This document shows positions 6,596 to 24,344 of a stretch of 36,257 nucleotides of DNA, in pieces. The stretch is from Patescibacteria group bacterium (GTDB taxonomy: Bacteria > Patescibacteriota > Minisyncoccia > GWC2-36-17 > WO2-46-25): positions 1 to 36,257 of the forward strand of contig JBBTXL010000045.1 in assembly GCA_038062295.1 (NCBI GenBank), written 5' to 3'. Below the pieces are notes generated by a model. The model searched no databases. It had not been told where the DNA came from and saw only the letters and a list, made by a program, of their open reading frames with translations. Every line of letters begins with the position of its first letter. The stretch's first letter is position 1. Both the position numbers and the translations under genes were made by a program.

Positions 6596-6604
6596 TTATC
6601 TTGA

Positions 6605-6673
6605 CCCGGTAGTGAATCCTCGGCTGTCGCGAAGCGACGGAAAGGCGTAGCATGCCGAGGATCTACTACCGGG
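6605..6673 (+). promoter_or_regulatory. Long imperfect inverted repeat / structured leader upstream of proS
   Basis: cccggtagtgaatcctcgg (6605-6623) versus ccgaggatctactaccggg (6655-6673): 17 of 19 complementary. It encloses the hairpin ctgtcgc-gaa-gcgacgg (6624-6640). Confidence 0.5.
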
Positions 6674-6711
6674 TTGAAACTTACCTGTATGTTTGGTACT
6701 GTTCCTATATC

Positions 6712-7965
6712 ATGTTGCAATCTCACGCATTCATTCACACTCGTCGGGAGGCTCCCAAAGACGAACCGAGCGTCAACGCGCAGCTTTTGGCGCGTGGGGG
6801 ATATATTGACAAGCTCACGAGTGGCGTGTACACGCTCTTACCTTTGGGCCTTTCGGTGCTTTCAAACATTGCGCGCATCATCCGCGAAGAGATGAACGCG
6901 ATCGGTGGAGTTGAACTTTTGCTGCCCGCGCTGCACCCCAAAGAGCTGTGGGAGGAAACCAAACGGTGGGACAGCGTGGACGACCTCTACAAACTCACGG
7001 ATCGGCAACAGCGTGAGTTCGCGCTTGGCGCGACGCACGAGGAGGTAATCACCGATATCATCCGCAAGCGGTCGTTCTCGTACAAAGATATGCCGTTTGC
7101 GCTGTACCAGATTCAGACGAAATTCCGCGATGAGCTGCGCGCAAAATCCGGCTTGTTGCGCGGACGAGAATTTCTCATGAAAGACCTGTATAGTTTTCAC
7201 GCAGATGAAGAGGACCGGAAAAAATACTACGAAAAAGCAAAAAAGGCGTACGGAAAGATCTTCAAGCGCTGTGGGCTTTCGGTGGTGGTGGCAGAAGCCG
7301 GCGGTGGGTCGTTTTCAAAGGAAATCTCGCACGAATTCCAGACGCCGACCGAAGCGGGCGAGGATACCGTCATATGGTGCACAAAGTGCGGTTTCGCGCA
7401 AAATACCGAGCTCGCACAGGCGCGGGGTGGCGAGAAATGTCCCGTGTGCGGAAACGTTTTGGCAGAAATAAAGTCTATAGAAGTAGGGAACATTTTTACG
7501 CTTGGAACAAAGTTTTCTTCAGCCATGGGGGCGTATTTCACCGACCGTAGCGGGAGTGATACGCCTATGGTGATGGGATGTTACGGTATCGGTTTGGGAC
7601 GGGTCATGGGGGCGGTAGTGGAGACAAATCACGACGACCGCGGCATCATATGGCCGCGGGAACTGGCGCCATTTGCGGTGCATATCGTGCCGCTTGGGGG
7701 CAAGGAAAAAAAGTCGTCAGCGCGGGTTGCAAAGGCGGCGCAGGTCTTGTACGCGGAGTGCTTGAAGAACGGTATTGGTGTGTTATATGACGACCGGGAT
7801 GCGTCTCCCGGGCAGAAGTTCGCCGATGCGGATCTTATCGGCGCGACCTGGCGCATGGTGGTATCGGAAAAGACCTTGGCACAGAAAGGGTGCGTGGAGA
7901 TAAAACGAAGAGATAATACAAAAACAAAACTTGTATCTATAAAAAATGTCGGGAAATTACTTTAG
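6712..7965 (+). CDS. proS: Prolyl-tRNA synthetase (short form, no INS editing domain)
   Basis: Matches bacterial ProRS blocks 'GATHEEVITD', 'YQIQTKFRDE' and 'REFLMKDLYSFH'. ATG 6712 chosen because the listed 6652 start lies inside the upstream inverted repeat. C4 ribbon 'CTKCG...CPVCG' sits where INS would be. Confidence 0.9.
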   Translation: MLQSHAFIHTRREAPKDEPSVNAQLLARGGYIDKLTSGVYTLLPLGLSVLSNIARIIREEMNAIGGVELLLPALHPKELWEETKRWDSVDDLYKLTDRQQREFALGATHEEVITDIIRKRSFSYKDMPFALYQIQTKFRDELRAKSGLLRGREFLMKDLYSFHADEEDRKKYYEKAKKAYGKIFKRCGLSVVVAEAGGGSFSKEISHEFQTPTEAGEDTVIWCTKCGFAQNTELAQARGGEKCPVCGNVLAEIKSIEVGNIFTLGTKFSSAMGAYFTDRSGSDTPMVMGCYGIGLGRVMGAVVETNHDDRGIIWPRELAPFAVHIVPLGGKEKKSSARVAKAAQVLYAECLKNGIGVLYDDRDASPGQKFADADLIGATWRMVVSEKTLAQKGCVEIKRRDNTKTKLVSIKNVGKLL

Positions 7966-12287: not shown

Positions 12288-13043
12288 ATGATTACGCACA
12301 AAGACCTGGAACGGTTCGGGTTGTCGGAAAAAGAAGCGCGGGTGTATCTCGCATCGCTGGAATTGGGGCCGGCAACGGCTGCGCAGATCGCGCAGAAAGC
12401 GGGCGTGAACCGCGCGACCACGTATGTGGAAATAGAATCGCTCATGAAGATGGGGCTTGTCAGCACCCATGAAAAGAACAAAAAGACATTGTTTACGGCC
12501 GAGGACCCGGAAGCGTTGAAGCGCATTCTCCAGCGGCGTCAGGAACGGTTCCAGCGTGCGCATCAGGCACTCAATGAACTGTTGCCAGAACTTTCCAATC
12601 TCTATCACTATGCCGGAGAAAAACCAAAAGTGCGATTTTTTGAAGGAAAAGAGGGATTGCTTACCATGCAGGAAGATTTTTTGAAAACGAAAGACAAAAT
12701 GATAGAGGGTCTCTACAATGTTGATAACTATCATAAAGTGTTTTCACGAACCGAACGCGAACAGTATTATGCAGTACGGTTAAAGAAAAAAATTCACGGG
12801 AGAACGCTCTACAACCGTGAAGCAGGTCCTTTTGACAGTCCGGACAAAATTACCGAAGACCGTTTTGTGTCCACAGATAAATTCAATTTTTCAAGCGATA
12901 TTACTATTTATGACAGTAAAGTTGCGATTGCCTCGCTCCGGGGAAAATTGATGGGGGTCATTATTGAGAATGAAGAAATTGCAAACACGGTGCGAGCTCT
13001 CTTTAGGTTGGCGTGGGATGCCGCAGAAAAATATCAGAAATAG
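12288..13043 (+). CDS. TrmB-family winged-helix transcriptional regulator (251 aa), paralog 1
   Basis: N-terminus 'LERFGLSEKEARVYLASLELGPATAAQIAQKAGVNRATTYVEIESLMKMGLV' is a TrmB-type HTH. Alignable over its length with the ORF at 22676-23431. Confidence 0.8.
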   Translation: MITHKDLERFGLSEKEARVYLASLELGPATAAQIAQKAGVNRATTYVEIESLMKMGLVSTHEKNKKTLFTAEDPEALKRILQRRQERFQRAHQALNELLPELSNLYHYAGEKPKVRFFEGKEGLLTMQEDFLKTKDKMIEGLYNVDNYHKVFSRTEREQYYAVRLKKKIHGRTLYNREAGPFDSPDKITEDRFVSTDKFNFSSDITIYDSKVAIASLRGKLMGVIIENEEIANTVRALFRLAWDAAEKYQK

Positions 13044-13057
13044 GTGCGGGAAAAGTG

Positions 13058-13090
13058 AAAACCGGGGATCGTTTTTCGATCCCCGGTTTT
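13058..13090. terminator. Bidirectional intrinsic terminator
   Basis: Perfect 14-bp stem aaaaccggggatcg / cgatccccggtttt with a ttttt loop. A/T runs on both sides. Confidence 0.85.
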
Positions 13091-13477
13091 GTTCATCCAT
13101 GCGAGTTGGTAGATATTAGCACGGACGAGTCTTATGGTCTTCCGGCGCCCATCTCGCCCTCCTTTTGGTTGGGGGAGGGAGTATAGATGGGCGAAAACGT
13201 TTTCTCACGTTGATTCGCTTCACTTTCGACGCCACAGAAACCAGTGGAATTTGGTAAAGTTTCCCGCTTTTTCCGCGTATTCACAAGTTGCTGGCCTCGC
13301 GCCAGCGTGAACATCTCGTTTTGCCGGCATTCTCCTAAAAATGCTTTGCCAGCAGTTTCGGTTTGGTTGAACTGCCTTTCAGTCGTAAAAACCAACGTTT
13401 TCACCCCCTTTCTTCCCCCCATATTCCCCTTAAACCCAATGTTTAAGGGGTTTTGGTAATGTACGAACAGCTTACCA
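13091..13477 (-). ncRNA. Candidate leftward transcript (structured RNA, or mRNA for a 96-aa ORF at 13132..13422)
   Basis: Lies between the minus-strand consensus promoter (13484-13511) and bidirectional terminator 13058-13090. Many hairpins, e.g. ccccttaaac/ggtttaagggg, gctggc/gccagc and cgcccatct...agatgggcg. The ORF product is low-complexity and basic. Confidence 0.25.
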
Positions 13478-13483
13478 TCGTCC

Positions 13484-13511
13484 ATTATACTCAAATACAG
13501 TTTTTTGTCAA
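13484..13511 (-). promoter_or_regulatory. Consensus sigma70 promoter firing leftward
   Basis: Minus strand reads TTGACA (rc of 13506-13511), 16-nt spacer, TATAAT (rc of 13484-13489). Confidence 0.7.
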
Positions 13512-13644
13512 TAGGCAATAACAATTTCTAAATATTTTTCTTTAAGTCAACTGTTGTCATAAATTATCAACACTATATATTATCAATAAAATAGCTTAAA
13601 TACTGTATTATTTAGCAATTATTGTTATTACTTGTTTAAAACTA

Positions 13645-13672
13645 TTGACAAAATAATAAAAATGAGTATAAT
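13645..13672 (+). promoter_or_regulatory. Consensus sigma70 promoter firing rightward into the 13.8-19.1 kb gene string
   Basis: TTGACA (13645-13650), 16-nt spacer, TATAAT (13667-13672), inside a visibly AT-rich tract. Confidence 0.75.
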
Positions 13673-13789
13673 GCCCGAGGTAAGTGACAAAAGCACCTTG
13701 AAACCAAAGGAAATTCAACGAAACCAAAACCCCTAACCATTTCCTCTGTCGCGTAAAGCTATGGAGGATACAAGAAAGGAGGTGATTGG

Positions 13790-14098: not shown

Positions 14099-14201
14099 CG
14101 CAGACCGGACGCGTCAATCTCCGGCCAAGGCACCGGAGTTGCCCAAAAACCCTTGGGTGTCAAAGCATGGGTGCGATAGGGTTCTGCAAAATTTCGCAGG
14201 A

Positions 14202-14278
14202 CTCCCTTCCAGAGCTTGTCTTTACGACAGCGTCCCAGAGACGAAAAGCCACACACTTAGGCTGTCTCTGGAAGGGAG
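14202..14278 (+). repeat. SD-mimic stem-loop, copy A
   Basis: ctcccttccagag (14202-14214) is perfectly complementary over 13 bp to ctctggaagggag (14266-14278). Confidence 0.8.
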
Positions 14279-14326
14279 ATTGGCTCCCGCACAGTTCTTT
14301 CAAACCCGAGAGGAGGTGGTTACCGA

Positions 14327-14416
14327 ATGGTAAAACAGATCGTTGTCGCGGCTCCAAAGTGCCAGGCCGCCGGGTGGCATAAAAACTGCCCGTTCTGTCA
14401 GGCTCGCAAGAGCTGA
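14327..14416 (+). CDS. 29-aa Cys/His mini-protein MVKQIVVAAPKCQAAGWHKNCPFCQARKS (below the ORF-track cutoff)
   Basis: SD GAGGAGGTGG (14310-14319), 7 nt before ATG 14327. C12..H18..C21-x2-C24 knuckle. Stop TGA 14414-14416. Confidence 0.45.
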   Translation: MVKQIVVAAPKCQAAGWHKNCPFCQARKS

Positions 14417-14493
14417 CGCTGGCCATGAGGGGACGCACATGTGCGCCAAGGAGTTCCCCTCACTCAATAGAGCCAAGCAAAAAAATCGTTTGG

Positions 14494-14537
14494 CTCCCTT
14501 TCAGAGGCTTGAAACGATTCAAATTTCTGAAAGGGAG
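14494..14537 (+). repeat. SD-mimic stem-loop, copy B
   Basis: ctccctttcaga (14494-14505) is perfectly complementary over 12 bp to tctgaaagggag (14526-14537). Inner hairpin ttgaa-acga-ttcaa. Confidence 0.8.
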
Positions 14538-14633
14538 AAATCCCGAAGTTCTTTGAAACAACAGCAGCGCAGGGCTGCGAACGGGACGACGCCGTGTTTC
14601 GGTCGAGCCATCAACCTTCAAAGGAGGTGAATC

Positions 14634-15149: not shown

Positions 15150-15336
15150 GCTGCTCTTCCATCCTCATACTGCCATGTAAAATTGCTCCTGCGACATGGC
15201 GCAGGCGATGAGACTGTCGCGATGACAGGCTCCTCGTGAGCGGGGATCCGCGATAAAAAGAGAGAAAGATGGATTACTCTCCATAAATCCGGGCGAGACC
15301 GCAGGTGTTATTTGTGGGAAGGAAACAAAACCCTTC

Positions 15337-15878: not shown

Positions 15879-15911
15879 ATGCATAAACTTACCTCCTCTC
15901 CCTTTCAGTAA
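15879..15911 (+). CDS. Micro-ORF MHKLTSSPFQ (10 aa), putative leader peptide
   Basis: SD GAGGAGG (15865-15871), 7 nt before the ATG. Its last codons form the left arm of stem-loop E. Confidence 0.3.
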   Translation: MHKLTSSPFQ

Positions 15912-15947
15912 CCATTTGAGACAAAGAGAGAGTGGTTACCGAAAGGG
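15900..15947 (+). repeat. SD-mimic stem-loop, copy E
   Basis: ccctttcagtaacca (15900-15914) versus tggttaccgaaaggg (15933-15947): 14 of 15 paired. Confidence 0.7.
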
Positions 15948-15992
15948 AAAAAAGACAGTACATTTAAAAACCAAATAACAGGAGGATGAACC

Positions 15993-16412: not shown

Positions 16413-16768
16413 CGACGGAAAAGAAAAACTACAACGTTTTGTTTGTATCCGAAATGGCGCCGGTCAATGCCGCCATGGACAGGATACTCAACCAACTTTT
16501 CTCTATTGGTGAAGTATGTGGTTTGGAAGACGCCGAAGATAAGATCTTTGCCGGCAACTACACGCACATCATTGTGATGGGAGAGTTCAGGTCGAACACC
16601 CCCAGCAAGGGTAGAGATTTTTATCAGCTTTTGAAACTACGGCTTCCGATCTGGAGAAAGGACGCCAAGGTTCTCAAAAGTGGCATGGATAACATCCAAG
16701 ACGACCCGGACTATGTCTGCATCCTGAATTTTCTTCCCGGGTTCATTCAGTGGGTCGAGTCGCACTAA
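16409..16768 (+). CDS. Receiver-like (degenerate) domain protein (about 119 aa)
   Basis: GTGA overlap with the REC gene stop; AAGGAGGA upstream. A beta-alpha pattern ('NVLFVSE', 'HIIVMGEF') without the acidic pocket. The start could instead be the ATG at 'SEMAP'. Confidence 0.55.
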   Translation: MTTEKKNYNVLFVSEMAPVNAAMDRILNQLFSIGEVCGLEDAEDKIFAGNYTHIIVMGEFRSNTPSKGRDFYQLLKLRLPIWRKDAKVLKSGMDNIQDDPDYVCILNFLPGFIQWVESH

Positions 16769-16769
16769 T

Positions 16770-16813
16770 AACAGTTCGACAAGCTCACCGAAACAGTTCG
16801 ATACACTCACTGT
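16770..16813 (+). repeat. Tandem 22-bp direct repeat (2 units)
   Basis: aacagttcgacaagctcaccga / aacagttcgatacactcactgt: 17 of 22 identical. The first 10 nt and the 'ctcac' block are conserved. Confidence 0.75.
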
Positions 16814-16830
16814 AAAAAGGAGGTGATGGG

Positions 16831-16869
16831 GTGAAGTTCTTCTATCCCGTTGGATTTGTTCAGGAGTAG
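16831..16869 (+). CDS. Micro-ORF MKFFYPVGFVQE (12 aa)
   Basis: GTG start 7 nt after the GGAGG core of perfect SD AAAGGAGGTGA (16816-16826). Peptide-level paralog of the micro-ORF at 23647-23679. Confidence 0.4.
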   Translation: MKFFYPVGFVQE

Positions 16870-17288
16870 GGAGCCTCTGTCATGAAGGGGAACACGGGGT
16901 CCGGCGGTGCTCAACCGTCGGGAAATCGGGACCAGAGAGATTGACCAGGACGGAGTCCTGGTGTGATCACTGGAAAAACCCGTTGTTTCTTTCCAGATTC
17001 CGTCATGCTGCCTGGGGGGTGTCCCTATATGCGGGACGAAGCCCGTACCAGCTTTTGCGCTCTCCCTTGAGAAAGGAGAGGTCGGCAACGGTGGCCCGTG
17101 TGTTCCAAACTTCGGTTTGGACGACGGCGGCAGTATGGCGCGAGGTGCAGACGTATCGGAGGAACCTCGTGAGAAGAATCTGGCGCGGCCGGTGAAGTGC
17201 AACGCACTGCGGAGCTTGGGGGCGGAACAACCCGCGGTGAGCCGGTAAGGAAACTACCCTTCATGCATGCTCGGTTTTATCAACCACT
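16870..17288 (+). ncRNA. Candidate ~0.4-kb structured RNA / leader
   Basis: 9-bp long-range helix catgaaggg (16881-16889) / cccttcatg (17257-17265). Local stems at 16944-16962, 17060-17080 and 17105-17120 (the last with a UUCG loop). ORFs listed here look like composition artefacts. Confidence 0.35.
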
Positions 17289-17309
17289 ATGAACGAAAGG
17301 AGGCACACA

Positions 17310-17606
17310 ATGTCGTGCGAAGAAATGGAGCCGGAATGGCAGGAAATTGAGCAAGAAGTTGAAAAGGTGGTTGAAGCGCTTCCGGAGCTGCCACCCAAAG
17401 AAGTTATCATGGAGGAAATTCATATGGAGACCCACAAGCTCGTTGACCTCCAGAAAGTCATTTTCGGGAAACCGAATCTGAAGCGCGCAGAAACTGCGGC
17501 GCTTATGAAAAGTGCGGCGAGAAACATCCTTGCCAATATCAAGGCGGGCGCCGCCAAACATCTTCCTGTGCATGTGACAGGCAACTCCCGCCAACGGGCG
17601 GGATAA
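17310..17606 (+). CDS. Hypothetical acidic protein (98 aa)
   Basis: ATG 17310 lies 6 nt after AAAGGAGG. The listed 17289 start has no SD. Confidence 0.65.
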   Translation: MSCEEMEPEWQEIEQEVEKVVEALPELPPKEVIMEEIHMETHKLVDLQKVIFGKPNLKRAETAALMKSAARNILANIKAGAAKHLPVHVTGNSRQRAG

Positions 17607-17728: not shown

Positions 17729-17962
17729 ATGAAAACACAGGAAGAGATACAAAGCGACCTCGTTGCGATACTGGAAAGCCATGGCGACGTGAAAGGTTAT
17801 ATTGCAAGTCTTATCGACCCGTTGCCATACACGACGCCCGAGGAGAAAGCAAGTAAAAATAGGAAAGCCGCGGCAGCGATTATGGCGTACGGTTCGTTTG
17901 AACGCGGTCTCTTTAATGTTGATATGCTTGCTGAAATATTACATAGAACTATCAACCCCTAA
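17729..17962 (+). CDS. Hypothetical protein (77 aa)
   Basis: ATG preceded by GCGGAGGGGAG. Stop TAA overlaps the SD of the next gene. Confidence 0.6.
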   Translation: MKTQEEIQSDLVAILESHGDVKGYIASLIDPLPYTTPEEKASKNRKAAAAIMAYGSFERGLFNVDMLAEILHRTINP

Positions 17963-17975
17963 AGGAGGTGAGAAC

Positions 17976-19055
17976 ATGGAGATGAGTTTGTCGTTGCGGC
18001 AAAGCCCGATGCTGGAATTGCGGCAGGCGCTGGAGAGTTCGCTTGAGCAGTCACTTATGGTACGGCATGAACTCCAGATGGCCATGGTGTTGTATCAGAA
18101 GCGGGAAGATGTATGCACCCGTCTTTACAAAAACGCTCTCAAAAAGGGTATGGTGAAACAGTACGCTCGGCACGACATGCAGTTTGAATTCGCGCTGGTG
18201 CGGAAGAAAGACGTCCCGGAGTGGATCTGGAAAGACTGCGGCCACGCGTTTTCCCATTGTCTCATGAAAGGATGGGACTGCTTCTTTTTCGGAAGCAAGT
18301 ATGCTATGGCGCGTGGGAGCTGGTTACTCTTTGTCATCCATGATTTTCACCGCGAACCGATGCCGGACAGCGCTGTCGGGTATGCAGCGGTACATGAGCG
18401 TGGAGAGATGGTTACGTTGGGAGATCACAACCTGGCATCCAAGCTCGAATTTTCGATCGCTGCGAAGGAGAGCAAGCTTAAGTGGTACATCGAATGGATC
18501 AAACAGACATGTCCGGAGAAATTTGCCGACATATTCAGCTACCAGACCCACTTCGTGCTGCCCGAGGGCGAGGAACTGCGTCAGACGCTCGAGGTATTCC
18601 AAGCATCTAAAGAAGCTCGGAAAGTAAAACAGCTGATCGAAGAATTTGAGTGGCCGTTGACGCTGTTGAAACTCCTCAAACAGTACGATGACGCAAACCG
18701 GCAGGCGCTTGGAATCATTCTGGATATGTTCTTGATGGCCGGCGATGTGGCGATAAAGGCCAATGTTTCCGTCATTCAGACGGTTGAACATATCAAGGCG
18801 GTTTTCCAGCGCGGGTTTTCCGAAATGACTTCCCAAGATCTCAAAAGGTACTTGAGCATTGTTCGGTTGGAAGGACGATGGAAAGATCAGCGCAATGAGC
18901 TGGGGAATAAGTTTTCCGAGATGTTGACCAGGAGAGAGAAACTCTTGGGCATTGACCGCTATCTTCGCGAACTTGATGCCGCGAGGGTAACAAATTCTCT
19001 TCCCACAGACGGCATTCTCTCTCCGGACTTTCGGGAAGTCCTCCGATATATATGA
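17976..19055 (+). CDS. Hypothetical protein (359 aa)
   Basis: ATG 17976 lies 5 nt after AAAGGAGGTGA (17961-17971); the listed 17802 start overlaps the previous gene. Contains 'CGHAFSHCLMKGWDC'. No family recognised. Confidence 0.75.
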   Translation: MEMSLSLRQSPMLELRQALESSLEQSLMVRHELQMAMVLYQKREDVCTRLYKNALKKGMVKQYARHDMQFEFALVRKKDVPEWIWKDCGHAFSHCLMKGWDCFFFGSKYAMARGSWLLFVIHDFHREPMPDSAVGYAAVHERGEMVTLGDHNLASKLEFSIAAKESKLKWYIEWIKQTCPEKFADIFSYQTHFVLPEGEELRQTLEVFQASKEARKVKQLIEEFEWPLTLLKLLKQYDDANRQALGIILDMFLMAGDVAIKANVSVIQTVEHIKAVFQRGFSEMTSQDLKRYLSIVRLEGRWKDQRNELGNKFSEMLTRREKLLGIDRYLRELDAARVTNSLPTDGILSPDFREVLRYI

Positions 19056-23457: not shown

Positions 23458-23646
23458 TTTCGTTCGTTTTTTCGCTATATTCCTACACTTTTTGCCGTAC
23501 CAATTATCTTGTTTATCGAGAGCACCTACTTTTCCAGCATTGACGCATGGAAAACGTATAATAGCGTCAGCACATTGAAACCAACCCCCAACCGCCCGCA
23601 GGCGAACCTGCTGCTGGATGAAAAACATCCACAAAGAGGAGGTACT

Positions 23647-23679
23647 GTGAAAAACAGCTACCCCACCGGGTTCTTATAA
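23647..23679 (+). CDS. Micro-ORF MKNSYPTGFL (10 aa)
   Basis: GTG start after AGAGGAGGT (23635-23643). Shares M-K-x-x-Y-P-x-G-F with the micro-ORF at 16831, using different codons. Confidence 0.4.
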   Translation: MKNSYPTGFL

Positions 23680-23774
23680 CAGTAAGACCCGGAGGCGAGG
23701 CGAGGACCAACGTCCACACCGCGACCTCCTCACTTTCCTTGAGCTCCGCATGCATGCGGGCCTCAAGAGAAGTT

Positions 23775-24344
23775 ATGAATATGCCAACCTTGGGAGTAAA
23801 CATCGCGATAATCCAAAACGGCAAGGTGTTGCTCACGAAACGTGAAGATTTTGAAGTGTGGTGCTTGCCGGGCGGCGGAGTGGATGCGGGCGAGTCGGTT
23901 GCAGAAGCGGTGATTCGCGAAACAAAGGAGGAAACGGGGCTTGATGTCCGGCTGACAAGAATGGTAGGAGTATACTCGCGGCCGCACTGGCTGGAGAATG
24001 GCGACCATACGGTGTTGTTTACAGCAGAAGTAGTCGGCGGGAACCTAAAACCGGAGGCGCGCGAGGTGGTGGACATCGGTTTCTTTGAGCCGCACCAACT
24101 GCCCGAGCCACTTATCTGGTGGTACCGCGAGCAGATCCACGATGCGGTGGGCGGAATAGTCGGAGTGACGCGCACGCAACACATCCCGCAGCCGTTCGGC
24201 AAAGGGGTGAGCATGCGGGAACTGTACCGGATACGCGATAAAACAAAAATACCCCGCCAGCAGTTTTTCCTTCGCCATTTCCAAACACCGCTTATCGTTC
24301 ATCCAGAGCGTATCCTGAAACGGATGGCTCTGGATGGGAGATAA
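23775..24344 (+). CDS. Nudix hydrolase
   Basis: Nudix box 'GGGVDAGESVAEAVIRETKEETGL'. ATG 23775 chosen because it follows hairpin 23738-23767; ATG 23781 is also possible. Confidence 0.85.
   Translation: MNMPTLGVNIAIIQNGKVLLTKREDFEVWCLPGGGVDAGESVAEAVIRETKEETGLDVRLTRMVGVYSRPHWLENGDHTVLFTAEVVGGNLKPEAREVVDIGFFEPHQLPEPLIWWYREQIHDAVGGIVGVTRTQHIPQPFGKGVSMRELYRIRDKTKIPRQQFFLRHFQTPLIVHPERILKRMALDGR

Follow-up and report, generated by a model that had tools for sequence, protein, structure and literature searches.

A covarying RNA domain behind a conserved micro-ORF in Patescibacteria: a candidate class of large structured 5′ leader RNA

The window analysed here is a stretch of 36,257 nucleotides (nt) of DNA from a Patescibacteria group bacterium (assembly GCA_038062295.1, contig JBBTXL010000045.1), and the subject is an element at 16816-17309 in which a short upstream open reading frame (uORF), led by a Shine-Dalgarno (SD) sequence, precedes a folded RNA domain of ~390 nt. 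Two + strand genes, for orphan proteins of 119 and 98 amino acids (aa), border the 541-nt gap (16769-17309) that contains the element (Table 1). The window is chromosomal, with MltG, RseP, an aminoacyl-tRNA synthetase, MreB, MreC, PBP2 and TrmB encoded upstream of the element, and it is found in the Hainich groundwater metagenome-assembled genome GCA_964361915.1, with copies that are 100% identical in four further assemblies from Hainich. The gap holds no annotated gene in the gene calls of five assemblies. An earlier note, made from the sequence alone, had described at this site a 12-codon SD-led micro-ORF, a long-range closing helix (16881-16889 with 17257-17265) around several local stems, and a next gene starting at 17310. 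All of these features are present where that note placed them, an ATG standing at 17310.

The 119-aa upstream protein belongs to a small family, and the contigs of its members, which were used to find related loci, are of two kinds: (i) element-bearing loci (L007 and L028), in which a gene pair (a 138-aa receiver-like protein and a 111-aa protein) is followed by a homologous element and then by a 103-aa gene that is the homologue of the 98-aa gene of the window, and (ii) sister loci (L006, L029-L035 and L037), in which a promoter and a response-regulator gene come next after the same gene pair, and both the element and the 98-aa gene are missing. Searching with a pattern that combines two invariant blocks of the element added three more copies (L040, L043 and L044) from Joint Genome Institute (JGI) metagenomes, that scan having returned three real loci and two chance ones. 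The homologues (L007, L028, L040, L043 and L044) come from Rifle-type aquifer metagenomes. The element is known in two lineages, the window and 'group 2', the latter comprising two subtypes that are 96-97% identical, and the comparisons below cover these two lineages and three distinct sequences. Window and group 2 elements share 62% identity over about 470 nt, while the flanking proteins share 37-56%; the spacer is therefore conserved at least as well as the genes that border it.

Wider searches added nothing to this set. A scan of GTDB species representatives with CAGATTCC..AGCCCGTACCAGC gave eight matches, all by chance and including a 'Peribacteria' lgt gene; a 16-mer scan of viral contigs gave 12 matches and a second viral scan one, again all by chance; and BLAST against phages and plasmids gave no homologue of the element. 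A covariance model of the core (R1) recovered only the six known copies in 98 kb of related loci plus the window, with no copy in the sister loci or beside the 361-aa homologue of the operon's large protein. As to the loci themselves, the sister loci carry a 130-aa response regulator and its promoter in place of the uORF-RNA-98-aa cassette, the pair partner being of 111-119 aa, and a promoter core (AAAAAGCGTT) is common to both cassettes, which suggests cassette replacement at a fixed site. A hairpin (GGGAAGUU and AACUUCC, separated by ~12 nt) stands right after the stop of the 111-117-aa gene (4369-4400 in L028, and at the same position in L006, L007 and L036-L039), and is followed by a U-tract only in the element-bearing loci. 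This hairpin could be a terminator or a protein site, and was not flagged by the terminator scan because its loop is too long.

Taken by itself, the window sequence is barely above chance, and the structure is shown to be real through comparison with its homologues. Of dinucleotide shuffles of 16816-17288, 13% contain a perfect 9-nt long-range complement, and 200-nt local folds of the region have z-scores of -1.7 to -2.0, compared with a whole-window mean of -0.75 (standard deviation 1.7). The whole 421 nt gives a fold z of -3.1 on the + strand and -2.6 on the - strand, and the L028 homologue by itself gives -5.5. The closing helix, as seen in a single sequence, was not significant until a homologue was found. 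The frequency of such complements in shuffles and the ordinary local z-scores are what would be expected of a chance, functionless fold in a G+C-rich spacer; this explanation is refuted by the homologues, in which the spacer is 62% identical beside less conserved proteins, two 16-nt blocks are invariant and the helices covary, and it is the least probable of those considered here.

The covariation was assessed with RNAalifold on an alignment (A4) of the window, L028 and L044, which gives a consensus of 117 pairs in 14 helices with 93.9% of cells paired. Both sides change in 21 pairs, compared with 2-3 in controls that shift the 3′ partners by 1-3 columns and with 6.8 ± 2.3 when columns are shuffled (21 is reached in 0 of 500), these counts being descriptive support rather than a test of the R-scape type, as the structure was derived from the same three sequences of two lineages. 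Helix A0 adds two more compensatory pairs beyond the 21. When each domain is folded separately, the window and L028 arrive at the same layouts, the two large indels (14 nt and 21 nt) are whole hairpins, and between the near-identical group 2 subtypes the substitutions at paired sites mostly preserve pairing via G.U. The consensus has many G.U pairs, which on the opposite strand would read A.C, and this identifies the + strand as functional. The fold is under selection, on the + strand and non-coding.

Overlapping Arg/Pro/Ser/Trp-rich ORFs, which the earlier note had taken not to be genes, raise the alternative of a decayed or unusual protein-coding gene on either strand, with the structure as a by-product of G+C-rich sequence. 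In the window, a 121-codon stop-free + frame and a 131-aa - strand ORF do share the same stretch, and some indel groups sum to multiples of three. By contrast, the + frame, the only long same-strand ORF of L028, stops there before the invariant block AGAATCTGGCGCGGCC and the homologous - frame contains stops, so that the ORFs are broken in L028; the three codon positions of the ORF span carry 39/32/33 mismatches, with no excess at the third; Pfam and PHROG searches gave no matches and gene callers made no call; and at least 21 compensatory pair changes are not expected from coding constraint. A coding origin is therefore very improbable, and even jointly coding and chance are left with only a small share of the probability.

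The domain (Table 1) consists of about 15 helices, set on a spine of four nested long-range helices (P1-P4), each of which opens onto a side domain (A, C, P7 and B). The closing helix of the earlier note is P1, the only part of the spine which that note had seen. P1 is kept in the second lineage, where it has three compensatory changes (CG/UA, GC/CG and AU/GC) among 14 consensus pairs, with 95% of cells paired; the proposal of a structured domain enclosed by this helix is thus borne out. Within it, P2 reads GUUUGCUU/AAGCAAAC in group 2, a C-G to G-C swap that makes one compensatory pair, the 8 bp of P3 are invariant save one C-G to U.G change, and five of the nine pairs of P4 are compensatory double changes (group 2 UGCAUCAGC/GCGAUGCA). 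A conserved block (AAACUACC.UUCAU) runs across the 3′ strands of P2 and P1, and invariant blocks occupy junctions and loops (AAAUCGGGA, AGCCCGUACCAGCUUU, GGUGGC, the loop GGAGGA and AGAAUCUGGCGCGGCC).

The compensation in A0 was read directly from the sequences; MAFFT offsets this helix by one column. All five local stems named in the earlier note exist at the positions given, and two of them (16944-16962 and 17021-17037) are lineage-specific inserts and not part of the core. The UUCG tetraloop reported at 17105-17120, on the tip of P6, is likewise present in the window but is not kept in group 2, which has an 8-nt loop on a longer stem. The loop of P7 contains an SD-like GGAGGA (17158-17163) that is kept in both lineages. 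In domain C, the outer helix becomes GCCAAC/GUUGGC in group 2 (two compensatory pairs), and the inner hairpin has a conserved loop (CGGAAC.A) and two further compensatory pairs.

Table 1. Coordinates of the element, its parts and its bordering genes in the window.
Feature	Coordinates	Strand	Remarks
Upstream orphan gene, 119 aa	16409-16768	+	Borders the gap on its 5′ side
10-nt direct repeat AACAGTTCGA, two copies	16770-16779, 16792-16801	+	Just 5′ of the SD
Extended SD AAAGGAGGTGAT	16816-16827	+	Core AAGGAGGTGA 7 nt before the GTG start
Micro-ORF (uORF), 12 codons, VKFFYPVGFVQE-stop	16831-16869 (GTG to TAG)	+	Conserved
P1 5′ strand (closing helix), core CAUGAAGGG (catgaaggg, 16881-16889)	16876-16889	+	Pairs with 17257-17269
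Domain A	16894-16983	+	Closed by helix A0
Helix A0, ACGGG/CCCGU	16894-16898 with 16979-16983	+	Group 2 GCGGA/UCCGC, two compensatory pairs
Hairpin A1, CCGGCGG/CCGUCGG	16901-16907 with 16915-16921	+	Conserved in homologues
Domain A joining block AAAUCGGGA	16923-16931	+	Conserved
Domain A variable arm, hairpin ACCAGGAC/GUCCUGGU	16944-16962	+	Window-specific; 14-nt indel
Domain A block GGAAAA	16972-16977	+	Conserved
P2 5′ strand GUUUCUUU	16985-16992	+	Pairs with AAGGAAAC, 17247-17254
P3 5′ strand CCAGAUUC	16993-17000	+	Pairs with GAAUCUGG, 17176-17183
P4 5′ strand CAUGCUGCC	17004-17012	+	Pairs with GGCAGUAUG, 17129-17137
Domain B (inside P4)	17013-17128	+	Three arms (P4a, P5, P6); same layout in window and L028 folds
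P4a (GGG/CCC) with inserted hairpin GUCCC/GGGAC	hairpin 17021-17037	+	Hairpin window-specific; equals the 21-nt indel exactly
Invariant block AGCCCGUACCAGCUUU (DNA AGCCCGTACCAGCTTT)	17040-17055	+	16 nt invariant in homologues
P5, CCAGC/GGUGG; tip CUCUCC/GGAGAG	17048-17052 with 17090-17094; tip 17060-17080	+	Two compensatory pairs
P6, long hairpin; tip CCAAAC-UUCG-GUUUGG	17096-17127; tip 17105-17120	+	Three compensatory pairs
P4 3′ strand GGCAGUAUG	17129-17137	+	Partner of 17004-17012
P7, hairpin CGCGAGGU with ACCUCGUG	17139-17171	+	Three compensatory pairs; group 2 GGGAAGC/GCUUCCU
Invariant block AGAAUCUGGCGCGGCC (DNA AGAATCTGGCGCGGCC)	17175-17190	+	16 of 16 nt identical in every homologue; holds P3 3′ strand
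Domain C, GCCGGU/GCCGGU	17188-17246 (17188-17193 with 17241-17246)	+	Conserved GAAG.GCAA
P2 3′ strand AAGGAAAC	17247-17254	+	Followed by the P1 3′ strand
P1 3′ strand CCCUUCAUG (cccttcatg)	17257-17265, extended to 17269	+	Pairs with 16876-16889
A+U-rich spacer	17270-17309	+	Conserved GGUUUUA..AACC at 17273-17285 (alignments)
Downstream gene SD AAAGGAGG (GGAGG)	17296-17303	+	Predicted largely unpaired
Downstream orphan gene, 98 aa (MSCEEM...)	17310-17606	+	ATG at 17310

The uORF is part of the conserved unit and more than a neighbour of the fold. Its SD has 12 nt complementary to the canonical 16S 3′ end, the SD core (AAGGAGGTGA) is identical in all homologues, and the start context (GGGTGAAG) and frame are conserved, as are the PVGFV codons; the micro-ORF of the earlier note is thus upheld in each of its parts. 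The group 2 peptide is VKKRFPVGFV followed by the stop, so that uORF length ranges from 10 to 12 codons, and the stop lies 1-10 nt before the foot of P1. Between window and group 2, the PVGFV codons have three third-position differences, all synonymous, and no non-synonymous ones, a pattern that points to translation in what is a small sample of one lineage pair. Like known leader peptides, the uORF is a short SD-led leader ORF conserved as a peptide; to our knowledge, its (F/Y)PVGFV sequence matches no known arrest motif. Unusually long SDs precede genes in this part of the window (16816-16827, AAAGGAGGTGAT; 13775-13786; 14620-14629), and up to 12 of their nt can pair with the 3′ end of canonical 16S rRNA.

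Upstream of the SD, the 10-nt direct repeat has only two matches in the 36-kb window (0.06 expected); it is possibly an operator or promoter-region site, and may belong to the same unit as the element. At the equivalent position in group 2 is a promoter-like TCTGCA-17-CATAAT, recognised by eye, which ends ~7 nt before the SD and is homologous to TTGACT-17-TAGTAT, a good promoter of the sister loci. With the group 2 promoter ending this close to the SD, the uORF would be at the very 5′ end of the transcript. Two additional pairings of the uORF form no part of the model. The P0 helix, between the end of the uORF and the spacer after P1, is the minimum free energy prediction in both lineages and was dropped, as 40-63% of shuffles equal its duplex energy. 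The P1 3′ strand could alternatively pair with the uORF start (GGGUGAAG), by 8 bp in L028 and only 6 bp in the window; this pairing is not claimed.

The best reading of the element is a new class of large structured 5′ leader RNA that is coupled to a uORF. On this reading, the chance of which is put at about even, 16816-17309 would be the 5′ leader of a small orphan operon and would comprise a translated uORF of 10-12 codons and a structured domain of ~390 nt acting in cis. In both lineages a promoter-like site stands before the element and the same gene after it, and a covarying multi-helix fold upstream of the same gene is what riboswitch aptamers present as well. A cis-acting leader is the most economical reading because the element is invariably followed by the same gene, is not separated from it by a terminator and starts with a translated uORF. 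The 98-aa gene is the only gene that always accompanies the element (its 103-aa homologue, 37-40% identical, follows the element in L028, L040 and L043), and the function is probably control of this next gene.

A mechanism can be proposed on these terms. The RNA would act in cis on the 98-aa gene and the genes after it, the folded domain being a sensor or a structural module that binds a ligand or protein. Ribosomes would load on the very strong 5′-terminal SD and end translation 1-10 nt short of the P1 base, which would couple uORF translation to the fold; the terminating ribosomes may open the outer P1 pairs or, alternatively, may protect and stabilise the 5′ end. Such coupling would set the level at which the downstream message is expressed. 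The earlier note had likened the architecture to a riboswitch or ribozyme, and this holds in so far as a covarying domain is present in the leader; no expression platform was found and there is no sign of catalysis, and the assignment is unproven.

Several points weigh against a cis-acting leader, beyond the descriptive standing of the covariation counts. From the uORF stop, a ribosome would get no further than the outer P1 pairs, the P0 helix is no better than its shuffled controls, and the consensus promoter scan did not flag the group 2 promoter that was found by eye. An expression platform was looked for and not found: the SD of the downstream gene is predicted to be unpaired in the window and weakly paired in L028, with no masking; the terminator scan found no terminator-like site after P1 or between the element and the 98-aa gene; and no consistent U-tract occurs 3′ of P1. 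With ~390 nt and 15 helices, the element is also much larger than typical riboswitch aptamers, and such a size suits a functional RNA that stands alone no less well.

A stand-alone RNA is the main alternative, possible though on balance doubtful. The element would be a large structured non-coding RNA (ncRNA) embedded in the operon, a ribonucleoprotein (RNP) scaffold or catalyst similar to OLE, with the 98/103-aa protein encoded next door as its partner; the main role of the 5′ SD and uORF would then be to bring in a ribosome that shields the 5′ end. In size, in helix number and in its long invariant junction blocks the element is more like a large ncRNA than a leader, P1 unites the 5′ and 3′ ends as in stable RNAs, and no expression platform was found. 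The strict co-occurrence with one small gene, the product of which has a disordered Arg/Lys/His-rich tail, also suits an RNP, and a large RNA set within an operon has a precedent in OLE (PMC9723947). By contrast, known large ncRNAs do not have a conserved and apparently translated uORF at their 5′ edge, the RNA is not bounded by a terminator or processing signal, no RNA-binding fold is detectable in the downstream protein, and the element is very narrowly distributed for a large ncRNA, classes of which are usually widespread.

The proteins of the operon give little guidance as to a ligand or partner. The 98/103-aa proteins share two conserved motifs (MSC.EM..EW and DLQK...GKPNLK), and the 98-aa protein has no other homologues and no family. 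Its AlphaFold prediction consists of three helices and the disordered basic tail, for which Foldseek found no fold match. Searches of the neighbouring proteins against Pfam, NCBIfam, PHROGs, PADLOC and PDB sequences gave nothing usable and no clue to a ligand. The 379-aa protein of the operon (17916-19055) occurs elsewhere without the element. It has no Pfam or NCBIfam match and 113 representative clusters in a library of 1.8 billion proteins; in some of these it is a domain within giant proteins of 2106-4610 aa, beside HEAT repeats, no known domain being assigned to it even in such multidomain relatives, and one 361-aa homologue sits after sbcCD without an RNA element.

An improbable alternative is shunt-like translational coupling or bypass, in which ribosomes finishing the uORF at the foot of P1 would cross the domain at its base, reach the A+U-rich spacer and there start the 98-aa gene, with the fold, perhaps together with a bound ligand or protein, deciding whether the transfer happens. 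In the configuration of the short-ORF-dependent ribosome shunt, a short 5′-proximal uORF ends just before a stable basal helix, which is followed by a UA-rich unstructured landing sequence (PMC5902531). The geometry of the element fits this description, with a uORF of 10-12 codons, a stop 1-10 nt before the 14-bp covarying P1, and a spacer that is 58% A+U in the window and 75% in L028; the leaders of the plant pararetroviruses CaMV (cauliflower mosaic virus) and RTBV (rice tungro bacilliform virus) (PMC5902531, PMC2241666) have the same layout as the element in both lineages. Those leaders, however, are eukaryotic and cap- and scanning-dependent, and shunting is a eukaryotic scanning phenomenon with no bacterial precedent, whereas each ORF of the element has its own SD. 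That of the downstream gene is strong (GGAGG) and predicted to be open, such that a hand-over is unneeded; a stable stem suffices for shunting, so that a far more elaborate fold of 15 helices with invariant junctions is unneeded as well; and an extra helix joining stop and start codons is unsupported. The likeness is thus formal only, and the element is not filed as a member of this group.

Other features of the window lie outside the element. A second conserved non-coding stretch (15171-15305), just after a 171-aa gene, is 82% identical to positions 242-370 of L034 and has apparent stem covariation (CUCCUGCG..CGCAGG versus GCUCCG..CGGAG) and no Rfam match. A conserved hairpin at 15896-15948 (CCCUUUCAGUAACCA and UGGUUACCGAAAGGG around an 18-nt loop), upstream of a 139-aa gene, has a local fold z of about -7 and recurs in L034 (900-950) and L028 (3070-3116) with 87-88% identity and a U-A to A-U stem swap; an SD-led micro-ORF (15880-15912, MHKLTSSPFQ) ends inside it, and its frame is not conserved. 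The + strand orphan operon is headed by a near-perfect sigma-70 promoter (TTGACA-16-TATAAT, by eye) at 13645-13672, within an A+T-rich spacer (13480-13700). A 535-nt gap (14099-14633) contains an SD-led 30-codon ORF (14328-14420, MVKQIVVAAPKCQAAGWHKNCPFCQARKS) with Cys pairs, flanked by 200-nt folds of z -3 to -6. Fold z-scores of -4.7 to -8, rough values from 20 shuffles, were obtained for the 200-nt segments 23601-23800, 6601-6800 and 13001-13200, and a clear terminator hairpin follows trmB at 13044-13090.

The element belongs to no described RNA family. The earlier note had been unable to match it to RNase P, tmRNA, cobalamin, SAM, TPP or guanidine motifs, and the searches came out the same way: Rfam 15 (4227 families, including RNase P, tmRNA, 6S, SRP, riboswitches, T-box, group I/II introns, OLE, ROOL, GOLLD, HEARO and raiA) gave no match at the gathering threshold in the whole window, and at E<=10 gave only noise (microRNA, long non-coding RNA and viral pseudoknot models at 10-16 bits) in 16600-17500 of the window and 4351-4930 of L028. 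ARAGORN found no tRNA or tmRNA in the window. A tmRNA was rejected on structure as well, the short ORF having a normal SD and start and lying outside the closing helix. Likenesses seen by eye to P4 of RNase P (GGAAAUCGGGA, ACAACCCG), the T-box (GGUGGC.CG) and the 11-nt receptor (UAUGG) were also set aside, as they are not conserved in the homologue and have no Rfam support.

Riboswitch aptamers closed by a P1 helix (e.g., cobalamin, lysine and T-box) resemble the element in their position in the 5′ leader, in a P1 that joins the ends of a junction, and in conserved nucleotides that gather in junctions and loops. The element differs in having no match to an Rfam riboswitch, no expression platform that could be found and orphan neighbours, and is about twice the size of the largest common riboswitch aptamers. 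A second likeness is to STAB-SD sequences and the stalled erm ribosome, which share with the element an unusually long SD at or near the transcript 5′ end, ahead of a long untranslated stretch. The STAB-SD of cryIIIA is a 5′ mRNA stabiliser that needs no ORF. A ribosome stalled on the erm leader similarly acts as a 5′ mRNA stabiliser (PMC5118997). In the element, unlike STAB-SD, a start codon and a conserved peptide follow the SD, and the position of the 5′ end is placed from promoter-like sequence only.

Few bacterial RNAs are this large and complex outside rRNA, RNase P, tmRNA, introns, OLE, ROOL, GOLLD and HEARO, and nearly all of these have proved to act in catalysis, as the core of an RNP or as a large assembly; a further RNA of this kind would therefore merit structural and functional work. 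The conserved blocks and the covariance model provide a handle for searching larger collections. If the element were trans-acting, it would represent a new class of large ncRNA with a candidate partner protein encoded next door. The oapA gene adjoins the ole gene. The OLE RNA itself, with a length of about 600 nt, assembles with Oap proteins into an RNP (PMC9723947, PMC7936274), and the element resembles an RNP of this type in size and genomic embedding only, its neighbouring proteins being without family assignment. More broadly, OLE, ROOL, GOLLD and the raiA motif (PMC9723947, PMC11706538) are like the element in being large, with many covarying helices and long invariant stretches, set among protein genes, and of a function not readable from context; by contrast, the element matches no Rfam model, has a conserved uORF, and is found in two lineages of uncultivated bacteria from groundwater rather than hundreds of species.

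For a cis-acting leader, the closest systems are those of ermC and ermB and toiL of the Escherichia coli topAI (PMC5118997, PMC12121999), in which, as in the element, an SD-led ORF of ~10 codons at the transcript start encodes a conserved peptide and is followed by an RNA structure and then by genes. In these leaders, a ribosome on the leader ORF remodels or stabilises the mRNA (PMC5118997, PMC12121999). The known examples are of ~50-150 nt and work through simple alternative hairpins, by which the next SD is masked or a terminator or Rho site is formed, whereas the element has a 390-nt multi-domain fold with invariant junctions, in which no SD masking was found. A conserved, translated micro-ORF fused to so large a fold is unusual; if cis-acting, the element would be the most elaborate uORF-coupled leader known in bacteria.

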